From contig CAMAVV010000001.1 of the NCBI GenBank assembly GCA_945861815.1, positions 1-38,534 of the forward strand: DNA of 38,534 nt, written 5' to 3'. The position numbers and the translations under genes were made by a program. The notes under the pieces were generated by a model. It did no database searches and was not told where the DNA came from. It saw nothing but the letters and a program-made list of their open reading frames with translations. This stretch comes from Thermoflexus hugenholtzii JAD2 (GTDB taxonomy: Bacteria > Chloroflexota > Dehalococcoidia > SHYB01). Positions within the stretch are counted from its first letter, which is position 1. Each line of letters starts with the position of its first letter. Positions 10,104-36,668 of this stretch are shown one piece after another.

Positions 10104-10128
10104 TGCTCAGAACGATGCGACGTTTGGC

Positions 10129-11797: not shown

Positions 11798-11870
11798 GGA
11801 TAGCGTACAGCTTGCTTTCTTCAGGAAACACCATTGTATGTGAAGGAGAGAAGAGGCGTCGAGCAGGGAC

Positions 11871-12548: not shown

Positions 12549-12553
12549 CTGCT

Positions 12554-14285: not shown

Positions 14286-14311
14286 GGCGCTGCTCCCACG
14301 CAATGCTTTGC

Positions 14312-14343
14312 GAAAAAAAGGAAGCGGGGACACCTGTCCCCGC
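14312..14343 (-). terminator. Rho-independent terminator after the Lys/Ala-rich protein gene
   Basis: GCGGGGACA-CC-TGTCCCCGC (14324-14343), followed on the minus strand by TTCCTTTTTTTCG. It lies 28 nt after the stop at 14372. Confidence 0.85.
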
Positions 14344-14371
14344 GTGCACACGGCGTTTCAGGCGAAAGCGG

Positions 14372-18256: not shown

Positions 18257-18316
18257 TTACACTAGGCTTTCGCCGCGCAGGATGGCCTTTGCCACGGTGG
18301 CGCGATGAATCTCCTA
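18257..18316 (-). other. In-frame TAG plus an 18-codon conserved ACAD C-terminal tail
   Basis: TAG at 18314-18316. The same frame then reads EIHRATVAKAILRGESLV and ends at TAA (18257-18259). This aligns with DEMHTMVLAREILGREY of the paralogue at 28031-29209. Confidence 0.8.
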
Positions 18317-19405
18317 AGGGCCTTCGACGATGCGCAGGGTGCGTACCTGGGAATAGAAACGCTCCAGGGGCAAGTCTTGGGTGACGCCGATGCCGCCGTG
18401 AATCTGGATCGCTCGATCGACGACGCGCCCGACCATCTCCGTGGCGAAGACTTTGCAGATAGAGGCGTCGGTGCGTGTGCCTGTGCCGTTGTCGGCTCGC
18501 CAGGCGGCGTCGTGGACCAAAAGCCGCGCCGCACGGATGTCGATAGCAGAGTCAGCGAGCATCCATTGCACTGCCTGGCGCGAGGCGAGAGGCTGCCCGA
18601 AGGTGTGCCGGTGCTTGGCGTAGGCGGCGGCCATCTTGAGGCAGCGTACCGACGTGCCGATGGCAGTCGATGAGAGGACAAACCGGGAGTTGCCGACGCG
18701 CTTCTGCATCAGGTCGAACCCCTTATCGACTTCACCAAGGACGGCTGACATGGGAAGGCGGCAATCTTCGAACCGCAGTTCGCTGGTGCGGCGTCCGCCC
18801 AAGACGGTGATCCACCGGACGTGGCGCACACCAGGCGTGTTGTTGTCCACGATGAAACAGGTGACGCCATTGCGGCCTTTCTCCGGGGCTGTCTTTGCGA
18901 AGGTGAGCATGAAATCGGCGCGTTCCCACCTGCTGGAGAAGACCTTCGTGCCGTTGAGGACGAAATGGCCGCCGTTGCGAACGGCAGTCGCTTCGATGGC
19001 GGCGGCATCGGAGCCGGCGTTCGGCTCGGTGAGAGCGATCATCGAGTGGCGTTCGCCCTTGATCGTAGGGATGAGATAGCGTTCGATCTGTTGTGGCGTC
19101 CCGAGGGCGAGGATCGCCCAGTTGGCAGGGTTGCCAAGCTCGAAGCGGAGGCAGGTCTTGCCCATCTCCTCGTGGATAATTGCCATGCCGAGGTTGTTCA
19201 CTCCGCCGCCGCCAAACGTGGCAGGCGCCGCCGCCGCCCAGAGGCCAAGCGCGATGGCCTTCTTCTCCAGGGCGAGGCGAGGCTCCTCCGGCAGCTCCGG
19301 GTGCACGTAGACCGATTCGAGGGGGATGAGTTCCTTTTCCACGAACTGCCGAGCCAGATCGCGCAGCATCTTCAGTTCATCGCTGATAGTGAAGTCCATA
19401 GACAT
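18314..19405 (-). CDS. Acyl-CoA dehydrogenase (ACAD1), ends prematurely at an in-frame TAG
   Basis: ACAD blocks LTEPNAGSD, FVLNGTKVFSS and a C-terminal domain ending ...VRTLRIVEGP-stop. The conserved last helix continues in the same frame after the TAG (see 18257-18316). Confidence 0.85.
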   Translation of the reverse strand: MSMDFTISDELKMLRDLARQFVEKELIPLESVYVHPELPEEPRLALEKKAIALGLWAAAAPATFGGGGVNNLGMAIIHEEMGKTCLRFELGNPANWAILALGTPQQIERYLIPTIKGERHSMIALTEPNAGSDAAAIEATAVRNGGHFVLNGTKVFSSRWERADFMLTFAKTAPEKGRNGVTCFIVDNNTPGVRHVRWITVLGGRRTSELRFEDCRLPMSAVLGEVDKGFDLMQKRVGNSRFVLSSTAIGTSVRCLKMAAAYAKHRHTFGQPLASRQAVQWMLADSAIDIRAARLLVHDAAWRADNGTGTRTDASICKVFATEMVGRVVDRAIQIHGGIGVTQDLPLERFYSQVRTLRIVEGP

Positions 19406-19434: not shown

Positions 19435-20355
19435 CTAGTAGCGGCTGTCCTCTTCGTTATCGGTGGCCTGTTTCTTGTCTTGTCCCTCCGAGGGAGCCTC
19501 CCACTTCGGCGTGCGGCGCTCGGCGAAGGCGCGCATCCCTTCGGCGTAGTTCCCTTTATCGACGACGCGCTGGTTCATGAGGCTCGCGGAGAACTTGATG
19601 TCCTCCTCGGCGCCTCGCCAGAAGGCACGATAGAAGCTCTCCTTCATGGCGCGGATAGAGGTTGGCGAGACATCCCGAACGATGGTGTCAGCGATGGAGC
19701 GCGCGGTTGGCAGCAATTCCTTGGGCGAGACGACGTGGGTGCAGAGGCCCCATTGCATCGCCTGGTGTGCGGTGACCGGCTGGCCCGTGAGCGTCATGTA
19801 GAGTGCGACGGCTTTTGGCATGTAGCGGAAGGCGGTCGCGCCACCGGTGAGCGGCGAGATGAAGCCGACCTTGCTCTGGGTGATGCCGAACTTCGCCTCC
19901 TCGGATGCGACGACGATGTCCGAGTTCAGCACCATCGCAAAGCCGCCAGCGACGGCCCAGCCATTGACTGCTGCGATGATGGGCTTCCAGATGTTGAACC
20001 GCGTGCGCGGTGTTGGGAAGGGCGGGTGCCGAAGGACCTCGGGGCCAGGCTCTTTGCCGCCTTCTTCCCAGGCTTTCAGCGCTTTGTGGGACGTGCGAAG
20101 CTCTTTGCGCGCAGCTTCGTTGAAGACATTCTCCGGGCTTTTCACGTCGCCCCCTGCACAAAAGGCGCGCCCCTTGCCGGTAAGGATGGCGACTTGGAGC
20201 TTTGGGTCGTCGCGGAAGTCGAGCCAAACGCGGGTAAGTTCACGGCACATGGGGATGTCGTAGGCGTTGAGCGACTCCGGGCGGTTGAGGGTGATGAGCG
20301 CGATGGGGCCATCCTTTTCATAGATGACAGTCTTGAGGTCTTTCCATGTGCTCAT
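19435..20355 (-). CDS. Crotonase-fold (enoyl-CoA hydratase/isomerase superfamily) protein ECH1
   Basis: ITLNRPESLNAY, oxyanion-hole region FCAGGD, PIIAAVNGWAVAGG. Carries an insertion of about 20 aa and an acidic C-terminal tail. Lacks both canonical hydratase Glu residues. Confidence 0.85.
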   Translation of the reverse strand: MSTWKDLKTVIYEKDGPIALITLNRPESLNAYDIPMCRELTRVWLDFRDDPKLQVAILTGKGRAFCAGGDVKSPENVFNEAARKELRTSHKALKAWEEGGKEPGPEVLRHPPFPTPRTRFNIWKPIIAAVNGWAVAGGFAMVLNSDIVVASEEAKFGITQSKVGFISPLTGGATAFRYMPKAVALYMTLTGQPVTAHQAMQWGLCTHVVSPKELLPTARSIADTIVRDVSPTSIRAMKESFYRAFWRGAEEDIKFSASLMNQRVVDKGNYAEGMRAFAERRTPKWEAPSEGQDKKQATDNEEDSRY

Positions 20356-20389: not shown

Positions 20390-21694
20390 TCAGACGATAC
20401 CTTCGACAAAGTCTCTGCCGATATGCCCTGTCGCTTCCATCTCCTGATACCGCGCATCCGAGAGGCAGAGCAAGTCTTTGTAGACGTACTCATTGTGCTC
20501 GCCAAGAGAACATGGGGGAAGGCGCAGATGGTTCGGCGTCTCCGACTGCTTCCAGAGAGGGCCATGATACTTGTATGTCCCGGCCTCCGTGTGATGCAAC
20601 TCCTCAAAGAAGCCGCGCGCCGCGAGCTGCGGATCCTCCAGCAATTGGAACTCATCGAGGACAGGGCCGGCAGGGACGCCTTTTGCTTGAAGGACCGTGA
20701 ACAGATGGCGGGAATCTTTGTCTTGCGTCCAATCGCTGATGACGACATCAAGGGCGTCATGATTCAGCCTGCGGGCCGCGGCGCTTGCGAAGCGGGCATC
20801 TTTTGCAAGGGAAGGCTGGCCCATCACATCGCACAGGGCCTTCCATTGCGCCTCCTTGGCGATGGACAAGACGAGCCACTGGTCATTACCTGTGCACCGG
20901 TAGCAACCCTGGGGCGCCATCACCGGGTCGCGATTGCCGATGGACTCTTGGATGTGGCCGTTCATCGTGTAGTCCATAAGCGGCTCTGCCATATAGCCCA
21001 GGAAGTTTTCAACCAGGGGCACTTCGACAAGCTGCGCCTCTCCCGTCTGTCGCCGCCGCCACAATGCCGCCAGGGTTGCGAAGGCGCTCGCTGAACCTGC
21101 GGCGGCATCGGCGGCTGTCGTATCGCCGCGCATCGTCGGGTCAACGTCAGGGTAACCCATGATGGCGTGGTGGCCCGTGACGCCGTCGGTGTGGGTGCCC
21201 AGCGCGCGGTAGCGTGCATACGAGCCGGTGAGGCCAAAGCCAGGCATGCGCACCATGATGAGCTGCGGGTTGTATCGCAATAGGACGTCGTATTCCAGCC
21301 CGAGTTTCTGGATCAGCCGTGGCGTGCTGTTCTCGATGAGAACGTCGGCGATGCGAACGAGGTCGAGGAGGATGGCCTTGCCCTCCGGCCTGCGAAGGTC
21401 CACGGTCATGCTGAGCTTGTTGCGCGCGTGGGCGTTGAAGCTGGGATGGCGGTTCCAGGGGCGCTTTCCTGGATCGAGATTCGGATAGGCGTAATGGAAG
21501 ACGAGCTTGCCCTTCTGCACCATCTCCTTCGTGGGCCGCGCCACGTTCCCCCGCGTATTCATCTGTTTCACCTGCGTCGATTCGACGCGGATCACTTCTG
21601 CGCCCCAGTCGGCGAGGAGCATCGTGGCATATGGCCCGGCCCAGAGGCCCGTCATATCGAGGATGCGGATGCCGGCGAGAGGGAGCTCAGACAT
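20390..21694 (-). CDS. Family III (CaiB/BaiF) CoA-transferase P1, type A
   Basis: GIRILDMTGLWAGPYATMLLADWGAEVIRVES followed by an insertion of about 45 aa. Asp in TAADAAAGSASAFATLAAL. Confidence 0.9.
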   Translation of the reverse strand: MSELPLAGIRILDMTGLWAGPYATMLLADWGAEVIRVESTQVKQMNTRGNVARPTKEMVQKGKLVFHYAYPNLDPGKRPWNRHPSFNAHARNKLSMTVDLRRPEGKAILLDLVRIADVLIENSTPRLIQKLGLEYDVLLRYNPQLIMVRMPGFGLTGSYARYRALGTHTDGVTGHHAIMGYPDVDPTMRGDTTAADAAAGSASAFATLAALWRRRQTGEAQLVEVPLVENFLGYMAEPLMDYTMNGHIQESIGNRDPVMAPQGCYRCTGNDQWLVLSIAKEAQWKALCDVMGQPSLAKDARFASAAARRLNHDALDVVISDWTQDKDSRHLFTVLQAKGVPAGPVLDEFQLLEDPQLAARGFFEELHHTEAGTYKYHGPLWKQSETPNHLRLPPCSLGEHNEYVYKDLLCLSDARYQEMEATGHIGRDFVEGIV

Positions 21695-21702
21695 CGAGTC
21701 TC

Positions 21703-22953
21703 CTAAATGACACCCAATCGGCGAAACCTTGCGACCTCTTCGGATGAGTAGCGTAGCGCGTCCGTGAGCACTTCCTTATTGTGCTGGCCGAGGGTCGGCG
21801 CCGGGCGGCGCAGGGACCAGGGCGTGCGATGCAGGATGAACGGCCTGCCGGGCATGACAACCGTGCCGGCCTCCGGGTGTTCGACCGTCGCCCAGACGCC
21901 GCGCGCGCGAAAGGTTTTGTCGTTCATCACATCCTTTGGTGTGTACATGGGCCCGCAGGCAAGCCCCACAGCCTGGGCCATGTGCCATACCTCCTGCATC
22001 GTGTGCTGCATGAGCCAGGGCAGCAGGATCGTCTGATTGAACTCTTCGACGATGCGCGGGTCTGAGCGATTGCTCATCGGCCCAAACGTCGGATGCTGCA
22101 GCAGCTCCTCACGACCGATGAGCTTGACCGTGTAGGGGAATCGCGCGGCGCTGCCGGAGAGGTGGATGTAGCCATCGGCGCAGGGGAAGGTGCCGGTGGC
22201 AAGGGCGAACTGCATGGGACGCCTGGGAAAGACATAGCCGGTGTGCTGGGCGGCGAGCGTCATCGTAGTGCGGCGGTCCTGGCTGCCCGCCTGTGTTTCG
22301 AAGATAGAGACGTCGACGTGTTCGCCGCGCCCGCGACGCTCTCTCGCGAAAAGGGCTGTCATCACTGCGGCGGCGGCGATGGAGCCGGCCTGCTGAAGGG
22401 CGACGTGCGCGCCGTACTTCGTCGGTTCGCGGTCAGGCATGCCCGTGGCGCGAAGGGAGCCGCCCATGCCGTGTTCGATGATTTCCGAGGCGAGAGAGTC
22501 GCGGTATGGCCCAGACTGGCCGAAGTTGGAGATGGAGACCACAACGAGCTTTTTATTTGCCTTTTCCAGGGAGGAATAGCCTAGCCCAAGGCGCTCCATC
22601 GTCCCTGGTTTGAAGCTTTCAACGACGACGTCAGCCCATCGTGCAAGGTGTAAAAGCAGTTGCCGCCCTTTCTCTATTTTCAAGTTCAGCGCCATGCCGC
22701 GTTTGTTCGTATTGAGATAGAGAAAGAGGCCGCTCTTTTCTCGATGCGGATGATTGCCGGGGAACGGCCCCATCTGGCGAGCGATGTCTCCAACCTCCGG
22801 CTTTTCGATTTTGATAACGTCTGCGCCATAGTCGGCGAGAAGTTTGGTGCAATAGGGGCCGCTGATATGTTGCGTCAGGTCGAGCACCTTCAGCCCGTCC
22901 AGCGCGCCTGGGCTTTTTCCTGCTTGGCCGCTGTGTTGTTTCACCATGCTCAT
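21703..22953 (-). CDS. Family III CoA-transferase P2, type B (Leu at the catalytic Asp position)
   Basis: LKVLDLTQHISGPYCTKLLADYGADVIKIEKPEVGD, GPFPGNHPHREKS, PDREP. The ATG overlaps the P3 stop (ATGA). Confidence 0.9.
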   Translation of the reverse strand: MSMVKQHSGQAGKSPGALDGLKVLDLTQHISGPYCTKLLADYGADVIKIEKPEVGDIARQMGPFPGNHPHREKSGLFLYLNTNKRGMALNLKIEKGRQLLLHLARWADVVVESFKPGTMERLGLGYSSLEKANKKLVVVSISNFGQSGPYRDSLASEIIEHGMGGSLRATGMPDREPTKYGAHVALQQAGSIAAAAVMTALFARERRGRGEHVDVSIFETQAGSQDRRTTMTLAAQHTGYVFPRRPMQFALATGTFPCADGYIHLSGSAARFPYTVKLIGREELLQHPTFGPMSNRSDPRIVEEFNQTILLPWLMQHTMQEVWHMAQAVGLACGPMYTPKDVMNDKTFRARGVWATVEHPEAGTVVMPGRPFILHRTPWSLRRPAPTLGQHNKEVLTDALRYSSEEVARFRRLGVI

Positions 22954-24188
22954 GCGACAACACCTTCTGTTGCGAGCGCGTCCAGATCATCAGGCGAGAG
23001 ACCGAGCTGTTCACAAAAGACGTAGCTGTTGCCGTTGCCGAGAGTGGGCGCATGGCGCCGATAGGAGCCTGGGGTAGCGCTGAGGCGAAGTGGGAAGCCA
23101 GGCTGGACTTCGTAGCCGACCAAGGGATGGTTGACCTCCAAAAAAGTGCCGCGCGCCTTGTGGTGCGGGTCGAAGATCTGGTCTTCTATCGTCGCGAGGG
23201 GCGCTGCGGCCACGCCATATTGCTGCAAGCGTTGGGTCAGCTCTCGCGCCTCCCAGGAGACCGTCGATTCGTTGATGAAAGCATCGAGCTCACGGCGATG
23301 TTTCCTGCGAAGTCGGGCATTCGCGAAACGAGAGTCATTGACCCACTCGGGACGGGTGAGCCCTTCGCAGAGCCCGCGCCACTCTGCCTCGTTTGCCACG
23401 CCAATCGATATCCACTTATCGGCGCCCTTGCAGTGATAGTTACCATGAGGCGCAAGCGTCTGGTGTTCATTTCCATGAGGGGTCGCGATGCGTCCATTCA
23501 GAAAGTAGTCAGCAAGGGGCGCGCCTTCGACGTTCACAAGGTTCTCCCACTGGGAGAAGTCGATGTAGCTCCCGCGCCCGGTGCGGTTGCGCTGGAAGAG
23601 AGCCGCGCAGATGGCCGACGCGCCAAAGATTGCAGCCGAGACATCGGCGTAGGCCGCCTGCATCGTGCCAAGCACCTTGCCGTCTTCATAGCCGAGGAAT
23701 GAGCTGAAGCCGCTCAGCGCCTGGTTCGCCGTTGCATAGCCGACGATGTGCTTCAGCGGGCCCGTCTGGCCAGGGCCGCTCATGGCGAGGTAGACGAGGG
23801 AGGGATTTGCAGAGGAAAGTTCGCGATAGCCAAGGCCAAGGCGGTCCATCACGCCAGGGGCAAAGTTCTCGGTGACGACGTCGGAGATGGCAGCGAGCCG
23901 CCGGAGGAGCGCGATGCTCTTCGGCTTGGTGAAGTCGAGTGTGATGCTGAGCTTGTTGCGATTGAGGGTGTGGAAGGCTGGCTGCATTTCCGGCCATTTC
24001 CCCATGTCGCCGCCTGCGATATCTTCGCCGACGACAGGCCGTCCACGGCGGCCCGTCTCCATGTGCACCCGCGATTCGACCTTGATGACCTCCGCGCCCA
24101 TATCGGCAAGGATGCCGCCGCACAAAGGGCCTGCCATCACCCTTCCGAAGTCAAGGATGCGATAGCGCTCTAATGCCTGTTGTGCCAT
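22950..24188 (-). CDS. Family III CoA-transferase P3, type A-like
   Basis: True start is ATG 24188 (MAQQALERYRILDFGRVMAGPLCGGILADMGAEVIKVES plus an insertion). The 491-aa ORF extension overlaps the upstream gene. Confidence 0.9.
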   Translation of the reverse strand: MAQQALERYRILDFGRVMAGPLCGGILADMGAEVIKVESRVHMETGRRGRPVVGEDIAGGDMGKWPEMQPAFHTLNRNKLSITLDFTKPKSIALLRRLAAISDVVTENFAPGVMDRLGLGYRELSSANPSLVYLAMSGPGQTGPLKHIVGYATANQALSGFSSFLGYEDGKVLGTMQAAYADVSAAIFGASAICAALFQRNRTGRGSYIDFSQWENLVNVEGAPLADYFLNGRIATPHGNEHQTLAPHGNYHCKGADKWISIGVANEAEWRGLCEGLTRPEWVNDSRFANARLRRKHRRELDAFINESTVSWEARELTQRLQQYGVAAAPLATIEDQIFDPHHKARGTFLEVNHPLVGYEVQPGFPLRLSATPGSYRRHAPTLGNGNSYVFCEQLGLSPDDLDALATEGVVA

Positions 24189-24193
24189 GGCGC

Positions 24194-25417
24194 TCAGGCC
24201 TTGAACTCTTGAAGGATCTTTTGCGTATGCTGGCCTAATCGCGGTGCGGGATGCGTCGAAGCAAAGCCCTCGCCGTTGGCGAGCCAGGGGAGACGCGGCA
24301 CGTCGAAGTGTGGCATGCCTGGGGCTGTGTATGTGCTGAAAAGGCCGCGCGCGCGAAGGTGCAGGTTTGTGGCTACTTCGTCGATGGTGAGCACAGGCGC
24401 GACTGGGATATGGCGCTCCTGGCACATCGCAAAGATTTCCTGTTTGGTATAGCGCGCGAGCCAGGGAAGAAGCTGCGCATCGGCTTCATCAGGGTACTTT
24501 TCCGACATGGCCCGAAGGTCTTGGTAGCGAGGCTCCTTCGACCATTCTGGATTGCCCATGAGCTCCACAAACTTGAACCACTCTTCGCGGCGAAGGAAGG
24601 TGATGGAGACGTGGCCGTCCTTGCAGGGCAGGATAGTGCGCGGGTAGATGCCCAGGCCCGTTCGGTGCCCTGCGCGTATCCCTGCGACGCCTCTATATAT
24701 GTAGGTAACGGCGAGGTTGCCCATGTGGAGGCAGGAGAGGACTTCTTCGGTGGCGATGTCCACATGCTGGCCTTCTCCGGTGGAGTCGCGGGCGAGAAGG
24801 GCCATCATCGTGGCGCAGAAGGCGGCCTGGCCCCCTTGGAAGTCGCAGACGTCGTATGGCACAGCGAGGGGTTCTCTATCGGGAAGGCCTGCGCCGATGC
24901 TGAAGCCGCCAGCCGCGCTCGCCGTGACGTCGTACCCCTTGTACTCGGCGTAAGGGCCTTTCTGCCCAAAGGTTGTGATGGAGGTGAGGGTAAGGCGCGG
25001 ATGGTCAGCGTGAAGTGGCGCAAAGTCTAGACCGATAGCCGTGCGCTCGGAAGGGCGATGATCGCTGATGACGACGTCGGCGTTTGAGACGAGTCTCTTC
25101 AACGCTTGCCTTCCGCGGGCAGCTTGCAAATCGAGGGTGATGCTCTCTTTGCCGCGATTGAGCGTGTGGAAGATGGCGCTCTTTTCAGGGTGTGGAATGT
25201 CCTTTGGGAATGGCCCGAGCCGCCGTGAGAGGTCTCCTTCCGGCGGTTCGACTTTGATGACGCGCGCGCCCAGCTGTGTCATCGTCACGCCACAAAAGGG
25301 GCCTGCGACGCCGTGGGCCACCTCGATAACGCGCAGGCCGTCCAGCCAGCCGCTGCCCGTTCGCGCCGCGTCTTTCCGACGTGGTCTTTTGACTGCCTTA
25401 GCCTGGCCCATACGCAT
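24194..25417 (-). CDS. Family III CoA-transferase P4, type B
   Basis: LRVIEVAHGVAGPFCGVTMTQLGARVIKVEPPEGD, GPFPKDIPHPEKS, PDREP. Asp in VCDFQGG. Confidence 0.9.
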   Translation of the reverse strand: MRMGQAKAVKRPRRKDAARTGSGWLDGLRVIEVAHGVAGPFCGVTMTQLGARVIKVEPPEGDLSRRLGPFPKDIPHPEKSAIFHTLNRGKESITLDLQAARGRQALKRLVSNADVVISDHRPSERTAIGLDFAPLHADHPRLTLTSITTFGQKGPYAEYKGYDVTASAAGGFSIGAGLPDREPLAVPYDVCDFQGGQAAFCATMMALLARDSTGEGQHVDIATEEVLSCLHMGNLAVTYIYRGVAGIRAGHRTGLGIYPRTILPCKDGHVSITFLRREEWFKFVELMGNPEWSKEPRYQDLRAMSEKYPDEADAQLLPWLARYTKQEIFAMCQERHIPVAPVLTIDEVATNLHLRARGLFSTYTAPGMPHFDVPRLPWLANGEGFASTHPAPRLGQHTQKILQEFKA

Positions 25418-25449
25418 CCTTGCCTCGGTGAAACAAAAGGGGTTTGGCG

Positions 25450-25478
25450 AACATAGCGCAGTGCAGGTGGCCGGTCAA
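25450..25478 (-). promoter_or_regulatory. Sigma70-type promoter inside the CoA-transferase array
   Basis: Minus strand: TTGACC (25473-25478), 17 nt, TATGTT (25450-25455), in the only sizeable gap (97 nt) of the array. Confidence 0.6.
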
Positions 25479-25514
25479 GGGAAGATGTGGCGTATGGTTT
25501 ATCTGCAAGGCGGC

Positions 25515-26825
25515 CTAGCTTTGCGGCGTCGTCCCGACGAGCTTTCGCCGGAGGAGGCCTGCGTATGTGCTTTCGAGCGCGCCCAGGAGATTTTTATAAA
25601 CCCAGTCGTTGTCTTCCCCTAGCTCGCATGGCGCGCGCACGATGCGTGTGACGGGAGGAGTGGATTTCCAAAAAGTTCCGGGATAGAGGTGGCTCCCGGT
25701 CTCTCGATGGCGGAGCGGCAGAAAGAAGCCGCGCTCCGCGATGTGTGGACTCTCCACAACGTCGCGCTCGTTCATGAGAACGCCTGCGGGGACGCCACAC
25801 CCTTGCAGGAGAGACATCAGCGCATGCGCGTCGTGTGATCTCGTCCAGTCTGCCAGGTGTTCGTCGATCGTTTGCCTGTTCCGCAGCCTGCCGAAGGCGC
25901 TTTGAAGAGCCTGCGCGCGCGTCCACGCAGGATGTCCAATCGCCTCGCAGAGATTGCGCCAGTCCCCATCATTGCGGACGGCGATGAAGAGCCAACGGTC
26001 ATCTCCTTTGCATGGGTAACAGCCGTGGGGCGCCATCGCAGAGTGTGCGTTGCCAAGAGGCGTCTGCGCTCTATTGTTCATCGCTGCATCGAGAAGGGCC
26101 GGGGCGAGGAGGCTAACGACGGCATCGCTCAGCGAGATGTCTATCAACTGCCCTTTGCCATCCTGCGCCCGCTGCACCAGCGCTGAGATCGCGCCCAGCG
26201 CCGCGCTCATGGAGCCTGCGGCATCGGCGAAGGCGACGTTGTCCTTGAACAGCAAGTCGACTTCAGAATGTCCGCGCAATGCGGTGAAACCTGCGTGAGC
26301 CTCGGCCTCGGCCCCAAGCCCGCGCGCCTGTTTCGCCTTGCCCGTGTGTCCGAAGGCGGCGATGCGCACCATGATGAGGTCGGGCTTCACACGGCGAAGG
26401 CGTTCATAGGTGAGGCCCAGCGCGTCGAGGGAATCGGGCGCAAGATTGACGACGAGCATATCGCAGGTGAGGAGGAGATCTTCAAAGGCCGACATTCCCT
26501 CTGGTTCTGTGAGCTCAAGGGTCACACTGCGCTTATCTTTGCCGTGGACTTGAAAGACGACGCATCTGTTCCAGGGGCGTTCGCCCGCCTCCCAGTTCGG
26601 GTAGGCGAAGTAGAACTCTCCTCCGGCGCGCAGGCTGTTGACCATTGCGGCGTTCGGCGCGAGAACAGGCCCTCGCCCGCCGAGCAAGTTCCGCGTGGAC
26701 TCCACGCGTATGACTTCAGCGCCCCAGTCGGCCAGAAGGGAGCTGGTGAACGGCCCCGCCCAAACTGTCGTCAGTTCGACAACGCGGACGTTTCGCAGAG
26801 GCAGCGCAAATGTCGCGGGTGGCAT
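25515..26825 (-). CDS. Family III CoA-transferase P5, type A
   Basis: VRVVELTTVWAGPFTSSLLADWGAEVIRVES plus an insertion. Clear paralogue of P1. Asp in FADAAGS. Confidence 0.9.
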   Translation of the reverse strand: MPPATFALPLRNVRVVELTTVWAGPFTSSLLADWGAEVIRVESTRNLLGGRGPVLAPNAAMVNSLRAGGEFYFAYPNWEAGERPWNRCVVFQVHGKDKRSVTLELTEPEGMSAFEDLLLTCDMLVVNLAPDSLDALGLTYERLRRVKPDLIMVRIAAFGHTGKAKQARGLGAEAEAHAGFTALRGHSEVDLLFKDNVAFADAAGSMSAALGAISALVQRAQDGKGQLIDISLSDAVVSLLAPALLDAAMNNRAQTPLGNAHSAMAPHGCYPCKGDDRWLFIAVRNDGDWRNLCEAIGHPAWTRAQALQSAFGRLRNRQTIDEHLADWTRSHDAHALMSLLQGCGVPAGVLMNERDVVESPHIAERGFFLPLRHRETGSHLYPGTFWKSTPPVTRIVRAPCELGEDNDWVYKNLLGALESTYAGLLRRKLVGTTPQS

Positions 26826-26828
26826 GAG

Positions 26829-27998
26829 TTACATCACCCCCGCCCGACGCAGCAGCATCTGCTCGCCAGGTGTGATGCCCAAGAGGCCGCCATACACAAG
26901 ACGATTGTGTTCACCCAGGCGCGGCCCGCGCGCGTGCGACCAATATCCAGGCCGGGCTTCGAAGGGAGGCAGTTCCAGCGTGACGCTTTTGTCTTGCGAC
27001 CTTCGTGCCGCGGCGATGTCCATCGGTGTGCGTACCGGCGCAAGAGGCACTTTGTGGCGTAGCGCCGCCTCCCACACCTCATCGCGCGTGTGCTCGCCAA
27101 GCCATTGCCACAAGACCTCCTCGATACGCGAGCGCCCCTCTTCGGTTCGTGCCTCGGCGATCGTCGGCAACTGCTTGCCTGACTCTTCGCCAAGCATCGC
27201 AAGCAGTCGCGGCAGACGCGGCCCGCCTGCGTGGATGCTGATGTAGCCGTCCTTGCACCGTCGGATGCCGTGGCCGACGCGCAGCTCTCCCACCTGGCGG
27301 CGCTTCATCATCAGTTCCCCTGTGTATTGATAGGCGAGGAGCGCCGCAGCGCGACGGTCTGCGCTGGCAAGGTAGCTCTCCATCACCGACATATCGAGGT
27401 GGACGGGCGCATGTGTCCCGGTGAAGAGCACGCCGTAGAGCGGAGCCGCAATCGCAACCGCTACTGCCGAACCGGCGTAGAACTCCATGACGTGCTCCGG
27501 ATACTTATACGGCTCTCTATCCGATGTGCCGTTGCCGATCATCGTGCCGCCCATCGCCTCCAGCACGCCCTCCGTTGCGGCAAATGAGCTGTACGGCCCG
27601 GTGTGGCCGAACGGGGTGATGGAGGCGAGGATAACGGAGGGATTCATGGCGGCGAGGTGATCAAAGCCAAGGCCAAGCGTTGTGAGATGGCCCGGGGGAA
27701 AGTCTTCGACGACGATGTGTGCCCACTGTGCCAAGGCCGCGATGAGCGAACGGCCCGTTGCGCTGTTCAGTTCTGTCGTGACGCTCCTCTTGCCGGCGTT
27801 GAGATAGTGGAAGAGGCCGCTTGCTTCGCTGTGCGGCGTGTCATTTGGGAACGGGCCCATCGCTCTGGAAGGATCGCCGCTGTGCGGCTGCTCTACCTTG
27901 ATGACGTTCGCGCCAAGGCTCGCGAGCAGCTTGGTAGCATAGGGGCCCGTGACGCCCCGGGTGAGATCGAGGATGCGTGCTGCGGCGAAGGGTTGCAT
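26829..27998 (-). CDS. Family III CoA-transferase P6, type B (Glu at the catalytic Asp position)
   Basis: ARILDLTRGVTGPYATKLLASLGANVIKVEQPHSGD, GPFPNDTPHSEAS, SDREP. Confidence 0.9.
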   Translation of the reverse strand: MQPFAAARILDLTRGVTGPYATKLLASLGANVIKVEQPHSGDPSRAMGPFPNDTPHSEASGLFHYLNAGKRSVTTELNSATGRSLIAALAQWAHIVVEDFPPGHLTTLGLGFDHLAAMNPSVILASITPFGHTGPYSSFAATEGVLEAMGGTMIGNGTSDREPYKYPEHVMEFYAGSAVAVAIAAPLYGVLFTGTHAPVHLDMSVMESYLASADRRAAALLAYQYTGELMMKRRQVGELRVGHGIRRCKDGYISIHAGGPRLPRLLAMLGEESGKQLPTIAEARTEEGRSRIEEVLWQWLGEHTRDEVWEAALRHKVPLAPVRTPMDIAAARRSQDKSVTLELPPFEARPGYWSHARGPRLGEHNRLVYGGLLGITPGEQMLLRRAGVM

Positions 27999-28030: not shown

Positions 28031-29209
28031 CTAGGTGTTGGTGTACGGGTTGACGTATTCCCGTCCGAGGATCTCCCGCGCCAGCACCATTGTATGCATC
28101 TCGTCAGTCCCGCCGACGATGCGGGCCGTGCGCACCCACCGGTAGAAGCGCGCGATGGGCAGTTCAAGGGTCAGGCCGATGCCTCCCATGATCTGCATCG
28201 CGTGGTCGAGGCAATGGTGGCCCCACTGCGCCGCGACAAGCTTGATGAGCGAGGCATCTTCGCGAAGGTCTTTCCCGTTGTCGGCATCGCGTGCTGCCTG
28301 GTAGGAGAGGGCGCGAAGGGCAAGGATATCGATGTGCATCTCCACAATCTTGGACTGGATCGCCTGGCGCGTGGCGATAGGCTTGCCGAAGCTGTGCCGC
28401 CGCTTCGCCCAGTCGACGCAGATATCGAAGGCGCGCTGCATCTGCCCGAGGGACGTGCCGCCCCGGATGAGGCGGTAGTCGGTGAGCCACTTTTGGCCGA
28501 GCTGGAAGCCGCGCCCGATGTCGCCGAGGATATTTTTCTCCGGGACCTCGACGTTTTCCAGGAACAGTTCATAGGTGGCGCGCTTCGGGGTGCGGCGGTA
28601 CTGCCACGTGGGGATCTCTCTGTAGCTGATCCCGGGCGTGCCCTTTTCCACCAGGAACATCGTGATGCCGTGCTGGCGCTTCTCCGGGTCTGTGACGGCG
28701 GGAAGCTGCCAAAAATCGCAGGCACCTGAGTAGCTGGTGAACATCTTGCGCCCGTTGATGACCCATGTGTCGCCGCGCTTCACCGCCCGCGTCTTCATCG
28801 AATTGCCCGGGTCGGAGCCGGAGTCCGGCTCCGTCTGCGCGAAAGCGCTCAGCTTTTCGCCGCGCAGCACGGGGTAGAGGAAGCGCTCTTGCTGATAGGC
28901 GTTTGCTTCGAACAGGCTTGGGATGATTTCCGCCTGAGGCAGAATAACCGCCGAGTAGTAGAGCTGTTCGCGAACAACCAAGTTTGTCAGGTAGCCTGTG
29001 CCGCCGCCGCCAAACTCTTTCGGGATGTGCGCATCCCACAGGCCGCACTTCTTTGCCACCTCCGTCAAGTGCGCCTCGTCCTCCGGAAAGTACTCTTCGT
29101 ACATGTCCAGCGGGAGGTATTTGGACTCGAGGGGCATGCACTCTTTCTGCACAACCTCCCGGGTGAGAGTCTGCAGCGCTTTCACGTCTTGCGGCAATTC
29201 GAATTCCAC
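28031..29209 (-). CDS. Acyl-CoA dehydrogenase (ACAD2)
   Basis: QTEPDSGSD, WVINGRKMFTS, intact C-terminus RIVGGTDEMHTMVLAREILG. GTG start after AGGAG. Confidence 0.9.
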   Translation of the reverse strand: MEFELPQDVKALQTLTREVVQKECMPLESKYLPLDMYEEYFPEDEAHLTEVAKKCGLWDAHIPKEFGGGGTGYLTNLVVREQLYYSAVILPQAEIIPSLFEANAYQQERFLYPVLRGEKLSAFAQTEPDSGSDPGNSMKTRAVKRGDTWVINGRKMFTSYSGACDFWQLPAVTDPEKRQHGITMFLVEKGTPGISYREIPTWQYRRTPKRATYELFLENVEVPEKNILGDIGRGFQLGQKWLTDYRLIRGGTSLGQMQRAFDICVDWAKRRHSFGKPIATRQAIQSKIVEMHIDILALRALSYQAARDADNGKDLREDASLIKLVAAQWGHHCLDHAMQIMGGIGLTLELPIARFYRWVRTARIVGGTDEMHTMVLAREILGREYVNPYTNT

Positions 29210-29310: not shown

Positions 29311-30108
29311 TCACTCCCCTTTGAATCGCGGCTCCCGCTTTTCCAAGAACGAGCGGATCCCTTCGAGGCGATCGTCGCTCTGGAGGGCGATGCGCATGGT
29401 CAGCGATTCGTATTGGGTGAACGAGTCGAGGTCCTGGCGCAAGCCCATGTAGATGGCGCGCTTTGCCATGGCGAGGGCGATCGGCGGCCCCTTCGCCAGC
29501 TTCAACGCGACCTCGTGCGTCTTCGCCTGCAACTCGCTGTGCGGCACGAGGATATTGATAAGCCCAGCCTCTTTCGCCTCCTGCGCGTCGAATATCTTCC
29601 CGAGGAAAACCATCTCGAAGACCTTCGGCAGGGGCATGATCTGCGGCAGAAGGTAGCCGCCTTGCGCCTCCGGCGGCAGGCCGCGCGTGACCCACACCGC
29701 GCCGAATCGCGCCTTGTCCGAGGCGATGCGCAGTTCCGCCGCTGCCGCCAGCGATAGTCCCCAGCCGACGGCGGGGCCGTTGACTGCGGCGATGACGGGC
29801 TGAGGGATCTTTCGGATCGCGAAGACGAAGTTGTCTTCCGGCGTGCGCGGCATGTAGCGCTTGCGCAGCCCAGGAACCTCTTGGGGCGTGCCCTTCATAT
29901 CCTGGCCTGAGGAAAAGCCGCGCCCTGCGCCCGTGATGACAAGCACCCGCGCGTCCAGGTCTTCGCCGACTTCCAAGATCGCCTTCGGGACCTCGGCAAC
30001 CATCTTGTGGCTGGCGGAGTTAAGCGATTCGGGCCGGTTGAGAGTGAGCGTCACGATGCCGTGCTCGTCACGGTCGAGCAGCAGTGTCTCATAGGTGGAA
30101 TATGCCAT
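29311..30108 (-). CDS. Crotonase-fold protein ECH2
   Basis: Start ATG 30108 (MAYSTYETLLLDRDEHGIVTLTLNRPESLNS). GFSSGQD, PVIAAVNGPAVGWG. The longer ORF overlaps the SBP gene. Confidence 0.85.
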   Translation of the reverse strand: MAYSTYETLLLDRDEHGIVTLTLNRPESLNSASHKMVAEVPKAILEVGEDLDARVLVITGAGRGFSSGQDMKGTPQEVPGLRKRYMPRTPEDNFVFAIRKIPQPVIAAVNGPAVGWGLSLAAAAELRIASDKARFGAVWVTRGLPPEAQGGYLLPQIMPLPKVFEMVFLGKIFDAQEAKEAGLINILVPHSELQAKTHEVALKLAKGPPIALAMAKRAIYMGLRQDLDSFTQYESLTMRIALQSDDRLEGIRSFLEKREPRFKGE

Positions 30109-30149
30109 ATGGGCCTTTCGTGCGAAGTCGTGTGTCGGTGCTGTCTTCC

Positions 30150-31919
30150 CTAACGCTCCAGGTAGACTTGCTCCCAGCGGTACCACGGCGAGAACAAGAA
30201 CGGCAGCGAGGGATAGTTCTTCACCCAGGGCATGTGGCCCATGTACCCGAAGCGATAGAACTCGGGGATGACGAAGTTGTCCTGCAGGATGATTTCTTGG
30301 AACTCTGCCAAGAGTTGCTTGCGCCGGGGGATATCAAGGGTTCGGTCTTGCTCCGCGTACAGCGCGTCGAGGCGCGGGTTCGACCACTTGCCGTAGTTCT
30401 GCCCGCCGCCTGTCAGCACCCAGAGCGACGGATAGTCCGAGGGGTCATCGAAGCTGATGGCCTGGGCGCGCGCGGCAAAGTCGAACTCGCCCCGAAGCAG
30501 CTTCGGCACTAGGTTTGCGCGATCCACAAGGTCGAGCTTTGTCTTGAATCCCATCGCCGCAAAGCTGCGCTCGACGATTTCTCCATAGAGGCCGTCGCCG
30601 CCCTGCGCCGCGAGGATGCTCACCGTGACCTCCTCTGGCTTCACGCCCGCCTGCGTCAGCAATTGCCGCGCTCGTGCGCGATCTGCCGTCTTATCGGAGG
30701 AGAAGCCGGGGCGGGAGAGCATGTCCCGTGAGGAGAGGCCCCACTGGCCGCCGAGCTCAGGCGGCATCAGCGGCGCGGCGGCCATGTCGCCCAGACCCTT
30801 GAGCCAGCCGTCGATGATTTCCTGGCGGTTGAGGAAAAGCGAGACTGCCTGACGGACAGCCGGATTCGTCCAGGGCGCCTTTTGCGCGGGATGCAAGAAG
30901 TAGAGGCCGATGTTCACTTTTTTGGTGACGAAGCGGTGTTCGCGCTGCAAGTCCTGGTACGAGATCTCGATCGCGCTCGTGTCGAAGTTGGATGCGTCGA
31001 GACGCCCCGCGCGAAAGGCGGCGACTGCCAGTGTCGTATCGGCGATGACGTTGAAGAGGATGCTATCGGCGTAGGGCAGGGCCGCGACGTGATAAGCGTC
31101 GTTCCGTGTGAACTCCATCGTCGTCGCCGTCGAGCCTTTGTAGCGATAGGGCCCCGTGCCTATGGGAGCCTTCTTCCAGGCGTCCAATTGCTCTGGGAAG
31201 GGCTGCGATGAGGGATACATGAGGACGCCGGCCATGCCGATGCCCTGTAAGAAAGCGTTGCTCGGCGCAGCGAGCCTGACCCGAACCGTGAGGTCGTCCG
31301 GGGTTTCGATGGACTGGATCGAGCTGACGCGCGCCTGGTAATAGGTCATCGTGGGCGCGCGCGGCTTCCATGCGCGCGTGAGGTTGTAGGCAACGTCCTT
31401 CGATGTGAACGCCGTGCCGTCGTGGAACTTTACGCCCGGTCGGAGCTGAAAGGTGATCGTGTCGCCTGTGCTTGCAACCTGCCAGCTCTGCGCCAGGTCG
31501 CCAGTGAGGCTGAAGCCATTGCCATAGGGATCGGGCCAGATGAGATTGTTCAACATCGGGCCGAGGTTATGGAAGTCCACTTGGCCGACGGTGTCGTATG
31601 TGTCCCAGGAGCGTGGAAGGTTCAGCACGCGAAGGTTCAATGTGCCCCCGCGCTTGCCATCCAAACGTCTGGGGATTTGCGGATTCGGTGTTGCAGTGGG
31701 CGCTGGAGTCGCCGTCGGCGCGAGTGTGGGCGTTGCCGTTGGCGCAGCCGCTGGCGCGGAGGTTGCAGCGGCAGTCGGGGCCTGCGTGGGCGCAGCCGTT
31801 GGCGGTCGGGACGTTGGAGTTGCCGTAGGTGGATCGTCGCCGCCGCAGGCAGTGACGACGAGAAGCAGTACAAGGAGAACTGTAGCGGCGCCGAAGGAGT
31901 TTCGCAGCAAGCGGCTCAT
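30150..31919 (-). CDS. ABC transporter substrate-binding lipoprotein, family 5 (peptide/nickel/opine type)
   Basis: Start ATG 31919 after GGAGGG. Signal peptide with lipobox VVTAC (Cys codon 31845-31847). A 52-residue Pro/Thr/Ala linker (31677-31832). Then an SBP_bac_5-like body of about 500 aa. Confidence 0.85.
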   Translation of the reverse strand: MSRLLRNSFGAATVLLVLLLVVTACGGDDPPTATPTSRPPTAAPTQAPTAAATSAPAAAPTATPTLAPTATPAPTATPNPQIPRRLDGKRGGTLNLRVLNLPRSWDTYDTVGQVDFHNLGPMLNNLIWPDPYGNGFSLTGDLAQSWQVASTGDTITFQLRPGVKFHDGTAFTSKDVAYNLTRAWKPRAPTMTYYQARVSSIQSIETPDDLTVRVRLAAPSNAFLQGIGMAGVLMYPSSQPFPEQLDAWKKAPIGTGPYRYKGSTATTMEFTRNDAYHVAALPYADSILFNVIADTTLAVAAFRAGRLDASNFDTSAIEISYQDLQREHRFVTKKVNIGLYFLHPAQKAPWTNPAVRQAVSLFLNRQEIIDGWLKGLGDMAAAPLMPPELGGQWGLSSRDMLSRPGFSSDKTADRARARQLLTQAGVKPEEVTVSILAAQGGDGLYGEIVERSFAAMGFKTKLDLVDRANLVPKLLRGEFDFAARAQAISFDDPSDYPSLWVLTGGGQNYGKWSNPRLDALYAEQDRTLDIPRRKQLLAEFQEIILQDNFVIPEFYRFGYMGHMPWVKNYPSLPFLFSPWYRWEQVYLER

Positions 31920-31959
31920 AAGTCCCTCCATCATGAACGAGCGTTCATTTGTGGCGATA

Positions 31960-31988
31960 GTTATACCGTTCCCTACTAGGCATGTCAA
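31960..31988 (-). promoter_or_regulatory. Near-consensus sigma70 promoter for the SBP/CoA-transferase array
   Basis: Minus strand: TTGACA (31983-31988), 17 nt, TATAAC (31960-31965), about 40 nt upstream of ATG 31919. Confidence 0.7.
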
Positions 31989-32134: not shown

Positions 32135-32752
32135 TTGGCGATAAAGAGCAAACTGGCCCCTGTGAACGGTCATTCACTCACTGGCCGCCGGCAAGAGATT
32201 ATCGAAAAGGCAGCGCGGCAGTTCCGAGAGAGAAGCTATGCGGCTACGAGCATGGCCGATATCGCCTCTCTCGTCGGCATGAACAAGAGCGGGCTCTACA
32301 ACCACATCGCTCGCAAACAGGAAATTCTGGAGCACGTCGCCGATGTCGCGATCGCCTACCTCAAGAAGACGACGGAGGAGATGGAGCAGATCAGCGCGAA
32401 CGAGCCCGAAGCGTTGATCGCCTTTGCCGTCCAGCGGCGTGTCGAGTTTGCCTGCGAGCACGCAGATGTCGTGGCAGTCCTCACGAAAGACAGGCATCAC
32501 CTCGAGCCGCTCCGCCTCCGCGCCGTCACGACGCTCCATCAAAAATATCGCAGGCTGATCCGCGACGCGGTCGTTGTGGGCATAGCGAAGAAGATCTTCG
32601 CAACGACGAACGCCAGTCTTGCGACACATTCCGTCATGGGGATGACGAACTGGGTCTACGAGTGGTACGACCCATCCGGGGCGCTTTCGCCCCGAGAGCT
32701 GGGCGAATCCCTGGCGCGCCTCTTCATGGATGGGCTGCGCGCGCGACGCTAG
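32135..32752 (+). CDS. TetR/AcrR-family transcriptional regulator
   Basis: N-terminal HTH IIEKAARQFRERSYAATSMADIASLVGMNKSGLYNHI. TTG start. Divergent from the SBP/CoA-transferase array. Confidence 0.85.
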   Translation: MAIKSKLAPVNGHSLTGRRQEIIEKAARQFRERSYAATSMADIASLVGMNKSGLYNHIARKQEILEHVADVAIAYLKKTTEEMEQISANEPEALIAFAVQRRVEFACEHADVVAVLTKDRHHLEPLRLRAVTTLHQKYRRLIRDAVVVGIAKKIFATTNASLATHSVMGMTNWVYEWYDPSGALSPRELGESLARLFMDGLRARR

Positions 32753-33505: not shown

Positions 33506-34690
33506 CTACTTCGTGTCCGCCCTGCCGACGATGGAGACGCCGCACGCGAAGGAGCCGGGGACGCCGCCCAGGCTGTGGGTCAGGCCCAGCTTCGCATCCT
33601 TGATCTGGCGGGGCCCCGCCTTGCCCTGGAGCTGCTTATACGTCTCGTAAATCATCCGGATGCCGCTCGCGCCGATGGGATGGCCGAAGCACTTCAGTCC
33701 GCCGTCGGGGTTCACCGGCAGTTCGCCCTCGAGGGTGAACGTGCCGTTAGCCACGTCCGCCGTGCCTTTGCCGCGCGGGGCGAGTTGCAGGTCTTCGTAG
33801 GTGATGAGTTCAGTGATGGTGAAGCAATCGTGCAGCTCCACCAGGCTCAGCTCTTTGCGCGGGTTGGTGATTCCGGCCTCGTGGTATGCCTGGGTGGCGG
33901 CGTGGTACGTCTCCGGGAAGGCGGTGAAGTCGTAGTCGTCTTGCAGCATTCCCTGGTCGCCGCCGACGGCGAGGCCGAGGCCTTTGACCAGTACATAGTC
34001 GTGGCGGATGCTCTTCGCGATCTCCGGGCGCGTGATGATCGCCGCCGCCGCGCCGTCGCTTACGCCACAGCAATCGAAGAGGCTCAGGGGCGACGCGATG
34101 ACAGGCGAGCGAAGGGCCTGCTCCAGGGTGATTTCCTTCTGGAAGTGCGCCTTAGGGCTGAGGCTGCCGTTGTGGTGATTCTTCACCGCGATCTGCGCCA
34201 GGAACTCTTTCCCCTTCTCCGTCGTCAGGCCATATTTCTGGAAATAAGCCGTCGCCGACATCGCGAACGACGCCGGTGGCCCGGCAGGAGTTTCGACGTT
34301 CGCGTTGGGGAGGATGTTCAGCGAGCCAAGGCCCGTATACCCGGTGTCCTTGAGCTTCTCCACGCCTGCGACAAGGACCATGTCGTAGATGCCGGCAGCG
34401 ACGGCGTAACAGGCGTTGCGAAAGGCGTCGACGCCTGTGGCGCAAAGATTCTCGACCCGGGAGATCGGGAGATAGGGGAGCTTGAGCGACCGGGCGAGAA
34501 GCTGGCCGCTGAAGGCCGTCGATTGCGTCCCCAGCCATGCCGCCTTGATATCCTTCGGCTCCACCTTCGCATCCGCATAGGCCTCGTAGACCGCTTCGAT
34601 CAGCAGGTCAGTGGCGCTGACATTCCACCTCTCGCCAAACTTCGTGCACCCCATCCCTATGATGGCGACCCGGTTTTTGATGCCTTCCAT
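33506..34690 (-). CDS. Thiolase-like protein, SCP-x/archaeal type (the kind usually partnered with DUF35)
   Basis: VAIIGMGCTKFGE N-terminus, active-site Cys context VENLCATG, C-terminal GHPIGASG and SLGGVPGS. Confidence 0.8.
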   Translation of the reverse strand: MEGIKNRVAIIGMGCTKFGERWNVSATDLLIEAVYEAYADAKVEPKDIKAAWLGTQSTAFSGQLLARSLKLPYLPISRVENLCATGVDAFRNACYAVAAGIYDMVLVAGVEKLKDTGYTGLGSLNILPNANVETPAGPPASFAMSATAYFQKYGLTTEKGKEFLAQIAVKNHHNGSLSPKAHFQKEITLEQALRSPVIASPLSLFDCCGVSDGAAAAIITRPEIAKSIRHDYVLVKGLGLAVGGDQGMLQDDYDFTAFPETYHAATQAYHEAGITNPRKELSLVELHDCFTITELITYEDLQLAPRGKGTADVANGTFTLEGELPVNPDGGLKCFGHPIGASGIRMIYETYKQLQGKAGPRQIKDAKLGLTHSLGGVPGSFACGVSIVGRADTK

Positions 34691-35342: not shown

Positions 35343-35358
35343 TTTAGCCCCTAAACAA

Positions 35359-35386
35359 TTGAGACTCTTGACTGTTATGGTACTAT
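35359..35386 (+). promoter_or_regulatory. Promoter for the amidohydrolase-MFS pair (extended -10)
   Basis: TTGAGA (35359-35364), 16 nt, TGgTACTAT (-10 at 35381-35386). An imperfect 21-bp palindrome ACAATTGAGACTCTTGACTGT (35355-35375) overlaps the -35. Confidence 0.55.
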
Positions 35387-35462
35387 GGCTGCCGACGGTA
35401 TGCCAGCGGAACGTGCGTTGATTGTACTGTCTGCATCTCACACCGCAAGGGAGACCTCCGCG

Positions 35463-36584: not shown

Positions 36585-36668
36585 GCGTGCCGTCGCGCCC
36601 GCATAGACTGTAGCCTGCCACGTGCCTCTTTCCATAGCCGAGTTGCGCGCTCTCGTTGAGGGGCCTGC

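Follow-up and report, generated by a model that had tools for sequence, protein, structure and literature searches.

Family III coenzyme A (CoA)-transferases are interlocked dimers whose catalytic aspartate forms an acyl-aspartyl anhydride intermediate, and some of them contain two different family III subunits. Benzylsuccinate CoA-transferase (BbsEF) is an alpha2beta2 heteromer of this kind, and the succinyl-CoA:L-malate CoA-transferase SmtAB of Chloroflexus, which works next to a MaoC-type hydratase, likewise has two paralogous family III subunits that are encoded side by side. In DddD, a dimethylsulphoniopropionate CoA-transferase/lyase, two CaiB-like domains are combined in one chain of ~830 aa. 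The transferase of the bbs genes is accompanied by an acyl-CoA dehydrogenase (ACAD; BbsG) and a crotonase (BbsH) (PMC10818641), and Landry et al. (2017, PMC5395668) report an expansion of CaiB/BaiF paralogues in Chloroflexota such as SAR202, with DddD-like best hits for some of the SAR202 paralogues. Here we analyse an array of six adjacent family III genes (P6 to P1; 20390-27998, minus strand) on the metagenomic contig CAMAVV010000001.1, the complete 38,534 nt of which are called the window below and identical or near-identical pieces of which occur in independent assemblies. Its sequence features suggest that the array is likely to encode three paralogous two-subunit CoA-transferases of the BbsEF type, namely P6+P5, P4+P3 and P2+P1.

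In BbsEF, as in the array, neighbouring genes encode two distinct family III subunits, E-like then F-like, and the catalytic aspartate of BbsEF is present only in the F-like chain. The two systems differ in that bbs has one pair instead of three in tandem, with 26-33% identity between them. In addition, the window carries a solute-binding protein (SBP) gene for import, no fumarate-adding enzyme was found in it, and its host, judging by the best homologues, is probably a member of the Chloroflexota (Dehalococcoidia). SmtAB is also a two-subunit enzyme of the Chloroflexota, and a MaoC-type protein is also the commonest neighbour of the pairs surveyed below (14 of 69 loci), whereas the partners in the window are crotonase-fold proteins. 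DddD, another possible precedent, has the architecture of ten fused proteins found in other genomes (800-870 aa, two PF02515 domains). The genes of the array are not fused, but P6 and P5 share a frame. The caiA, caiB and caiD genes of E. coli share with the window the combination of a family III transferase with ACAD-fold and crotonase-fold proteins, but CaiB is a homodimer, unlike the paired subunits proposed here, and the window has neither CaiC nor CaiT. By analogy, the bbs genes, in which BbsEF occurs with BbsG and BbsH, appear to be a closer counterpart than cai. The array is an unusual threefold tandem arrangement of a known and very widespread enzyme type, and it reveals no new kind of enzyme or mechanism.

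Two alternating types of family III subunit

All six open reading frames (ORFs) match PF02515 over their full length (E 3e-68 to 1e-102; 231-344 bits against a gathering cut-off of 23.3). The original prediction, made from the DNA sequence alone, described them as a strict alternation of an upstream type B and a downstream type A, and blastp comparisons and profile scores agree with the order B-A-B-A-B-A. From P6 to P1 the junctions measure 3, 97, 5, -4 (an ATGA overlap between P3 and P2) and 8 nt, exactly as had been stated. The genes of the array are:

26829..27998, minus strand: P6, type B (BbsE-like) putative partner of pair 1; PF02515; Glu172 at the nucleophile position
25515..26825, minus strand: P5, type A (BbsF-like) predicted catalytic subunit of pair 1; Asp201
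24194..25417, minus strand: P4, type B putative partner of pair 2; Asp192 retained
22950..24188, minus strand: P3, type A predicted catalytic subunit of pair 2; Asp182
21703..22953, minus strand: P2, type B putative partner of pair 3; Leu186 at the nucleophile position
20390..21694, minus strand: P1, type A predicted catalytic subunit of pair 3; Asp196

Each of the six genes has its own stop codon, and there is no DddD-like double-domain polypeptide here. However, P6 and P5 share a reading frame and are separated by just a TAA and a CTC codon (26826-26831, minus strand), such that one base change would turn them into a B-A fusion of the kind that occurs in other genomes. P6 also carries a deletion of roughly 12 aa near its C-terminus.

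The motifs that had been assigned to the two types are largely present. GD, GPFP and [PS]DREP occur in P6, P4 and P2 and not in the type A proteins, whereas the VIKVE that was also attributed to type B does not hold for P2, which reads VIKIE. Similarly, type A lacks GD as described, but the proposed insertion of 30-45 aa is too long. The segment that follows VI[KR][VI]E has a length of 25-26 aa in type B; among the type A proteins it is 33 aa long in P3 and 47-48 aa long in P1 and P5, which makes the net type A insertion 7-22 aa.

The six genes may belong to an operon. A promoter-like sequence had been noticed in the 97-nt P5/P4 spacer, and it is indeed there:

25450..25478, minus strand: TTGACC-17-TATGTT, a weak promoter-like sequence with 9/12 consensus matches

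Such sites are not enriched in this region (2, compared with 3.1 +/- 1.5 in shuffled sequences), and the sequence is therefore no evidence of a promoter. An Rfam search of the window returned two tRNAs only and nothing within the P5/P4 gap.

Pairwise identities among the six proteins are 24-39%, and blastp separates them into the two types, with 168-320 bits within a type and 65-159 bits across types. The same division is recovered with PDB entry 9FN0, a solved benzylsuccinate CoA-transferase with two chains. Chain B (9fn0_B) is the top PDB match for P5, P3 and P1 (146, 206 and 173 bits, with 70, 83 and 81 bits on chain A), and P3 matches it at 33% identity. Conversely, P6, P4 and P2 each score higher on chain A than on chain B (121 versus 62, 140 versus 101 and 165 versus 139 bits, respectively). 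We take chain A to be BbsE and chain B to be BbsF, from the chain lengths and from the JGI naming of type A homologues. These homologues, including those of P3, carry the name 'BbsF subunit'. Type A is thereby the BbsF-like type and type B the BbsE-like one, and B followed by A corresponds to the order bbsE-bbsF.

To classify the subunits more broadly, we used 79 loci from a genome scan (designated by L-numbers), mostly from metagenome-assembled genomes of Dehalococcoidia, with others from Deltaproteobacteria, Binatia, Clostridia, Spirochaetales, Nocardia and further groups. Altogether 79 adjacent pairs were available, 3 from the window and 76 from elsewhere, and A and B profiles were trained on the 76 non-window pairs only. 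The difference between the A and B scores is +157 to +183 bits for P1, P3 and P5 (+129 to +183 when 9fn0_B is included) and -143 to -178 bits for P2, P4, P6 and 9fn0_A, with P6 at -143. The homodimeric enzymes Frc, YfdE, CaiB, SUGCT and 4ED9 are near neutral (-4 to -23 bits) and fall in neither type.

The original prediction that A and B would form two clades with co-inherited pairs was borne out. Every family III unit of the collected loci was aligned with E. coli CaiB, Frc and YfdE, 4ED9, SUGCT and both 9FN0 chains. In the resulting neighbour-joining (NJ) tree, the paired type A subunits group with 9fn0_B to the exclusion of type B and of the homodimeric references (91/100 bootstraps), and the paired type B subunits group with 9fn0_A to the exclusion of type A and of these references (85/100). 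Judged by their sequences, types A and B are two old, co-inherited lineages.

Co-inheritance and fusion of the pairs

The order of the two genes is conserved in related genomes, as had been anticipated: B precedes A in 73 of the 79 adjacent pairs, and A precedes B in the other 6. Ten of the 79 pairs are single-ORF fusions in which the B domain comes first and the A domain second, and these occur in Dehalococcoidia, Nocardia, Myxococcaceae, Cellvibrionales and Binatia. The fused proteins have 800-870 aa, and the presence of two PF02515 domains was verified in such proteins. In the L007 fusion, the N-terminal half is nearest to 9fn0_A and the C-terminal half to 9fn0_B. No structure of a fused B-A protein is present in the PDB. 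Positions of the fusions are:

L007, 8717-11236: B-A fusion
L018, 8795-11269: B-A fusion
L026, 8284-10692: B-A fusion
L056, 8762-11218: B-A fusion
L058, 2646-5114: B-A fusion
L073, 8762-11203: B-A fusion
L076, 4-2199: B-A fusion
L081, 8798-11212: B-A fusion
L057, 8792-11170 and 11220-13631: tandem B-A fusions
L084, 18245-20863: further B-A fusion

Partners have also been inherited together. The distance matrices of the A and B subunits are correlated (Mantel r = 0.66; maximum over 2000 permutations 0.22), and for 41 of the 79 pairs the nearest neighbours of A and of B are themselves partners, where chance gives ~1. For the three pairs of the window, the A and B trees are congruent, with P6/P5 and P2/P1 as sisters and P4/P3 as outgroup. 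P6/P5 and P2/P1 are both nearest to pairs of L030, L037 and L064, and P4/P3 is nearest to pairs of L004, L010 and L003. Together with identities of 31-39%, these separate nearest relatives indicate that the three pairs are ancient paralogous units and not recent tandem duplicates.

The alternating arrangement had been expected in close relatives as well. Among the closest relatives of P2 (57-59% identity), the B/A pair itself is found, but as single pairs only and not as a triple array. This result counts against the original prediction, which had named absence of the alternating pattern from close relatives as a refutation. None of the 69 surveyed loci with pairs has a triple array, and double arrays are present in L003, L010, L015 and L057. 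In L085, a 3.1-Mb relative, the A partner of a P2-like gene is split into ORFs of 292 and 156 aa (11245-12554), likely by a frameshift or as a pseudogene; this A gene is intact (437 aa) in L084.

These observations bear on whether the six genes could instead encode six independent homodimeric enzymes with different substrates, in a plain paralogue expansion like that of SAR202 and other Chloroflexota. Most characterised family III enzymes are homodimers, the SAR202 expansion is documented (PMC5395668) and the identities within the array are low. On the other hand, neither the strict alternation nor the 73 B-then-A pairs, the ten fusions or the mirrored trees would be expected of independent enzymes, and we consider this explanation quite improbable. 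The array would rather encode three heteromeric B/A transferases of the BbsEF kind, a proposal of the original prediction that is strongly supported, at the level of sequence, by homology to the 9FN0 chains, gene order, fusions and mirrored phylogenies.

Asymmetric loss of the catalytic aspartate

The main functional asymmetry between the two types had been missed in the original prediction: the catalytic aspartate is mostly lost from type B. At the alignment position of Asp169 in both CaiB and Frc (the nucleophile column), all 79 type A subunits have Asp, in comparison to 10 of the 79 type B subunits. The remaining type B subunits have Glu (17), Gln (16), Gly (10), Leu (7), Tyr (6), Ser (5) or one of a few other residues, and in 62 of the 79 there is no Asp within two residues of this position. 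The loss extends to the fusions, where the B domain lacks Asp in 9 of 10 examined. Unpaired family III genes of the same loci retain Asp in nearly all cases. The two chains of 9FN0 follow the same pattern, with Asp in 9fn0_B and Tyr in 9fn0_A.

In the array, Asp is present in P5 (D201), P3 (D182), P1 (D196) and P4 (D192) and not in P6 (E172) or P2 (L186), and it is thus confined to the F-like subunit in two of the three pairs, P4/P3 being the exception. In HMMER alignments, Leu186 of P2 lines up with the Asp of 4ED9, the Asp of SUGCT and the Tyr of 9fn0_A. The nearest relatives of P4 have D, D, D, A, H, S, N, S and G at this column, which suggests that the position of its Asp192 is unconstrained. 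Other differences accompany this loss. In 70-80% of comparisons the evolutionary rate of type B exceeds that of type A, and positions that type A and the homodimeric enzymes conserve (G239, N240 and P247 in P3 numbering) are degenerate in type B. The N-terminal motif common across family III is conserved in type B too.

The absence of Asp from 69 of the 79 type B subunits, with non-acidic Leu in P2 and Glu in P6, is a further argument against six independent homodimers. A different possibility is that heterodimers do form but that both subunits are catalytic, which would create two different active sites at least in P4/P3, and also in P6/P5 if Glu serves as nucleophile. This is suggested by Asp192 of P4, by the Asp of 10 and the chemically similar Glu of 17 of the 79 type B subunits, and by the conserved N-terminal motif. 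However, the variation among the closest relatives of P4 is unlike the invariant Asp of type A, and the degenerate glycine, asparagine and proline positions of type B also speak against a second functional site. We regard two-site heterodimers as unlikely.

Thus, in the BbsEF-type arrangement that we favour, the downstream BbsF-like type A subunit would supply the invariant Asp that forms the anhydride intermediate, and the upstream BbsE-like type B subunit would be its obligatory partner in an interlocked dimer. Given the degenerate nucleophile position of type B (Glu in P6, Leu in P2 and an unconstrained Asp in P4), each heterodimer probably has one working site.

A rather unlikely extension of this model is that the nucleophile-less BbsE-like subunit is more than a passive scaffold, through partner exchange or through repurposing of the dead site. 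Exchange among three A and three B subunits would give up to nine site compositions per operon, if each site is built from both subunits as it is in homodimeric family III enzymes. A repurposed B site would bind CoA esters or hand them over and thereby couple the three transfers. On a wider view, about half of the 'CaiB/BaiF expansions' of Dehalococcoidia and SAR202 would be pseudoenzyme partners, and the halved number of enzymes would change how these genomes are read.

Even with a passive partner, the pairs matter for annotation. In Dehalococcoidia and SAR202, organisms that are thought to oxidise recalcitrant organic matter, the paralogues of family III CoA-transferases make up one of the most expanded gene families, and they are usually counted and annotated gene by gene. 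The SAR202 study likewise treats them as individual enzymes (PMC5395668), whereas here they are co-inherited pairs. From the sequences surveyed, many of these paralogues appear to come as a catalytic subunit with a co-inherited partner that lacks Asp, either as adjacent genes or as a fusion. This pair structure provides a simple rule for annotation and for the choice of co-expression partners, and the triple array offers three ready pairs from one organism for tests of pairing specificity and substrates.

Flanking genes and the remainder of the window

The genes on either side of the array were also as described in the original prediction, and their identities agree with Pfam: SBP, ECH2 and ACAD2 lie upstream, and ECH1 and ACAD1 lie downstream, followed by cmk, a plsC-like gene and glmS. 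With a divergent regulatory gene, the flanks comprise:

32135..32752, plus strand: TetR-family regulator (Pfam TetR_N and TetR_C_24), divergent from the SBP gene across a 146-nt spacer
30150..31988, minus strand: SBP, a family 5 solute-binding lipoprotein of an ATP-binding cassette (ABC) importer (PF00496, SBP_bac_5; E 1e-64)
29311..30186, minus strand: ECH2, crotonase-fold protein (PF00378, E 2e-50), likely start ATG at 30108
28031..29209, minus strand: ACAD2, acyl-CoA dehydrogenase with Pfam ACAD N, M and C domains
19435..20355, minus strand: ECH1, crotonase-fold protein (PF00378, E 2.5e-51, match split into two stretches) that has an internal insertion
18257..19405, minus strand: ACAD1, acyl-CoA dehydrogenase with an in-frame TAG at 18314-18316

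By its position, the TetR-family gene is a candidate local repressor. The SBP gene probably starts near 31919-31934, and the N-terminus of its product contains ...LLVVTAC followed by a Pro/Thr/Ala-rich linker. This lipoprotein signal suggests import of an organic acid. SBP homologues flank B/A pairs elsewhere, for example in L015, L064, L011 and L018. Relatives of P2/P1 adjoin genes for short-chain dehydrogenases/reductases (SDRs), ECH, ACAD, thiolase and family 5 SBP (SBP5) proteins (L030, L064 and L080), which supports a beta-oxidation-like setting. The commonest same-strand neighbour of B/A pairs is a ~430-aa MaoC/FAS1-type double hot-dog protein (14/69 loci, e.g. L010 12218-13501), which is not in the window; this neighbour recalls family III transferases paired with mesaconyl-CoA-type hydratases.

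Alignment with E. coli CaiD reveals that both canonical hydratase glutamates, which CaiD has, are missing from ECH1 (Ala and Gln) and from ECH2 (Ser and Trp). The ECH homologues near related pairs in L030 and L080 have the ECH2 pattern of Ser, a hydrophobic residue and a later P-D/E-x-GG. From these residues, ECH1 and ECH2 may not be simple hydratases, and the earlier suggestion of non-classical chemistry gains some support in this respect. In the PDB, ACAD2 is closest to generic short/medium-chain ACADs. Where medium-chain acyl-CoA dehydrogenase has Glu376, ACAD2 has Gly (IVGGT), and the catalytic base of ACAD2 may therefore be located at another position, as is the case in isovaleryl-CoA dehydrogenase. 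In ACAD1, the TAG directly follows the catalytic-Glu motif (IVEGP*), and beyond it 18 more codons continue in frame and encode the usual C-terminal helix of an ACAD, EIHRATVAKAILRGESLV. An independent ENA assembly (L086, 99.99% identity) carries this TAG too, and TAG is an ordinary stop for other genes of the window. It could represent a nonsense mutation, the end of a truncated enzyme or a site of read-through.

Also in line with the original prediction, the window encodes no acyl-CoA ligase: there is no AMP-binding domain in the 36 window ORFs scanned, and tblastn with E. coli CaiC gave a best E of 2.1. We propose that the lipoprotein SBP captures an organic acid for import and that the transferases pass CoA to the imported acid or acids from a thioester donor that the pathway itself probably yields, for example succinyl-CoA or acetyl-CoA, so that neither ATP nor a ligase would be required. 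The resulting thioesters would then be processed by the two ACADs and the two atypical crotonase-fold proteins. An ATP-free entry of diverse acids into CoA-dependent oxidation has similarly been proposed for the expanded family III enzymes of SAR202 (PMC5395668).

The resemblance to BbsEF raises the question of whether the locus is truly orthologous to the anaerobic arylsuccinate (bbs-type) pathway, in which benzylsuccinate-like fumarate adducts of hydrocarbons are activated. BbsF is the closest solved relative of each type A protein, type A homologues bear the 'BbsF subunit' name, and the window holds an ACAD, ECHs and further bbs-like parts:

8214-9762, minus strand: two adjacent SDR paralogues
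13875-14351, minus strand: DUF35 protein (zinc ribbon and oligonucleotide/oligosaccharide-binding fold, BbsA/ChsH2 type)
33506-34690, minus strand: SCP-x type thiolase, which passes the PRK06157 model

Against orthology, these SDR, DUF35 and thiolase genes are dispersed among housekeeping genes. On the BbsB model the thiolase reaches 174.5, below the cut-off of 750, whereas it does pass a generic acetyl-CoA acetyltransferase model. In addition, identity to BbsE/BbsF is just 26-33%, no glycyl-radical fumarate-adding enzyme is present among the window ORFs scanned, and similarly distant homologues in Dehalococcoidia number in the thousands. An arylsuccinate pathway is thus highly improbable, and true bbs orthology was rejected on the basis of the identity, the BbsB score and the missing fumarate-adding enzyme.

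The 'Cai-like' label of the original prediction fares no better. A carnitine-type pathway, with CaiA-, CaiB- and CaiD-like enzymes acting on a betaine-type substrate, would draw on the same three enzyme families, and ECH1 has a weak match to the crotonobetainyl-CoA hydratase model. However, the NCBIfam scores are far below the cut-offs (CaiB 53-124 versus 413, CaiA 163-169 versus 540, CaiD 145 versus 500), and no reference in the alignment is more distant than CaiB. No CaiC-type ligase or CaiT-type antiporter was found in the window, and ECH1 and ECH2 have neither of the catalytic glutamates that CaiD has. We rejected this extremely improbable reading on the NCBIfam scores and the position of CaiB in the tree. 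None of the six transferases reached an NCBIfam equivalog, and neither did the ACADs, ECHs and SBP or the fused homologues.

Some points weigh against the favoured model of three BbsEF-type heteromers. The case that these particular proteins form heteromers is indirect, drawn from fusions and partner co-evolution. The deep branches of the NJ tree are based on saturated distances (>1), at ~30% identity to BbsEF. P4 still has its Asp, and pair 2 could therefore have two active sites; the Glu of P6 might conceivably act as a nucleophile as well. The Frc D169E mutant is reportedly inactive. The neighbours of the pairs vary, with ECH, ACAD and SBP5 genes each in only 6-7 of the 69 loci, which makes the substrate and the pathway guesses, and the in-frame stop of ACAD1 and the missing ECH glutamates make the downstream chemistry uncertain.

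Other features of the window are:

392-1204, plus strand: insertion sequence-type integrase (rve)
1161-2030, minus strand: N6/N4 DNA methylase
4433-4632, minus strand: tRNA-Leu(tag) and tRNA-Lys(ctt)
35385-36584, plus strand: third Amidohydro_2 gene
36669-38006: major facilitator superfamily (MFS) transporter, following the third Amidohydro_2 gene

Two oligopeptide-type ABC ATPase genes adjoin the tRNAs, with no permease genes nearby, and the SBP, ABC ATPases and MFS protein are the only transporter genes found in the window. A 380-aa ORF between the SDR pair and a haloacid dehalogenase-type hydrolase (9925-11067, plus strand) has no Pfam or NCBIfam match. The third Amidohydro_2 gene lies opposite a 768-aa ORF (34893-37199, minus strand) that is mostly spurious, and only its C-terminal MarR part (~34893-35380) looks real. 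Luciferase-like monooxygenases, SDRs and amidohydrolases, which occur beside the SAR202 paralogues (PMC5395668), are all present in the window too.

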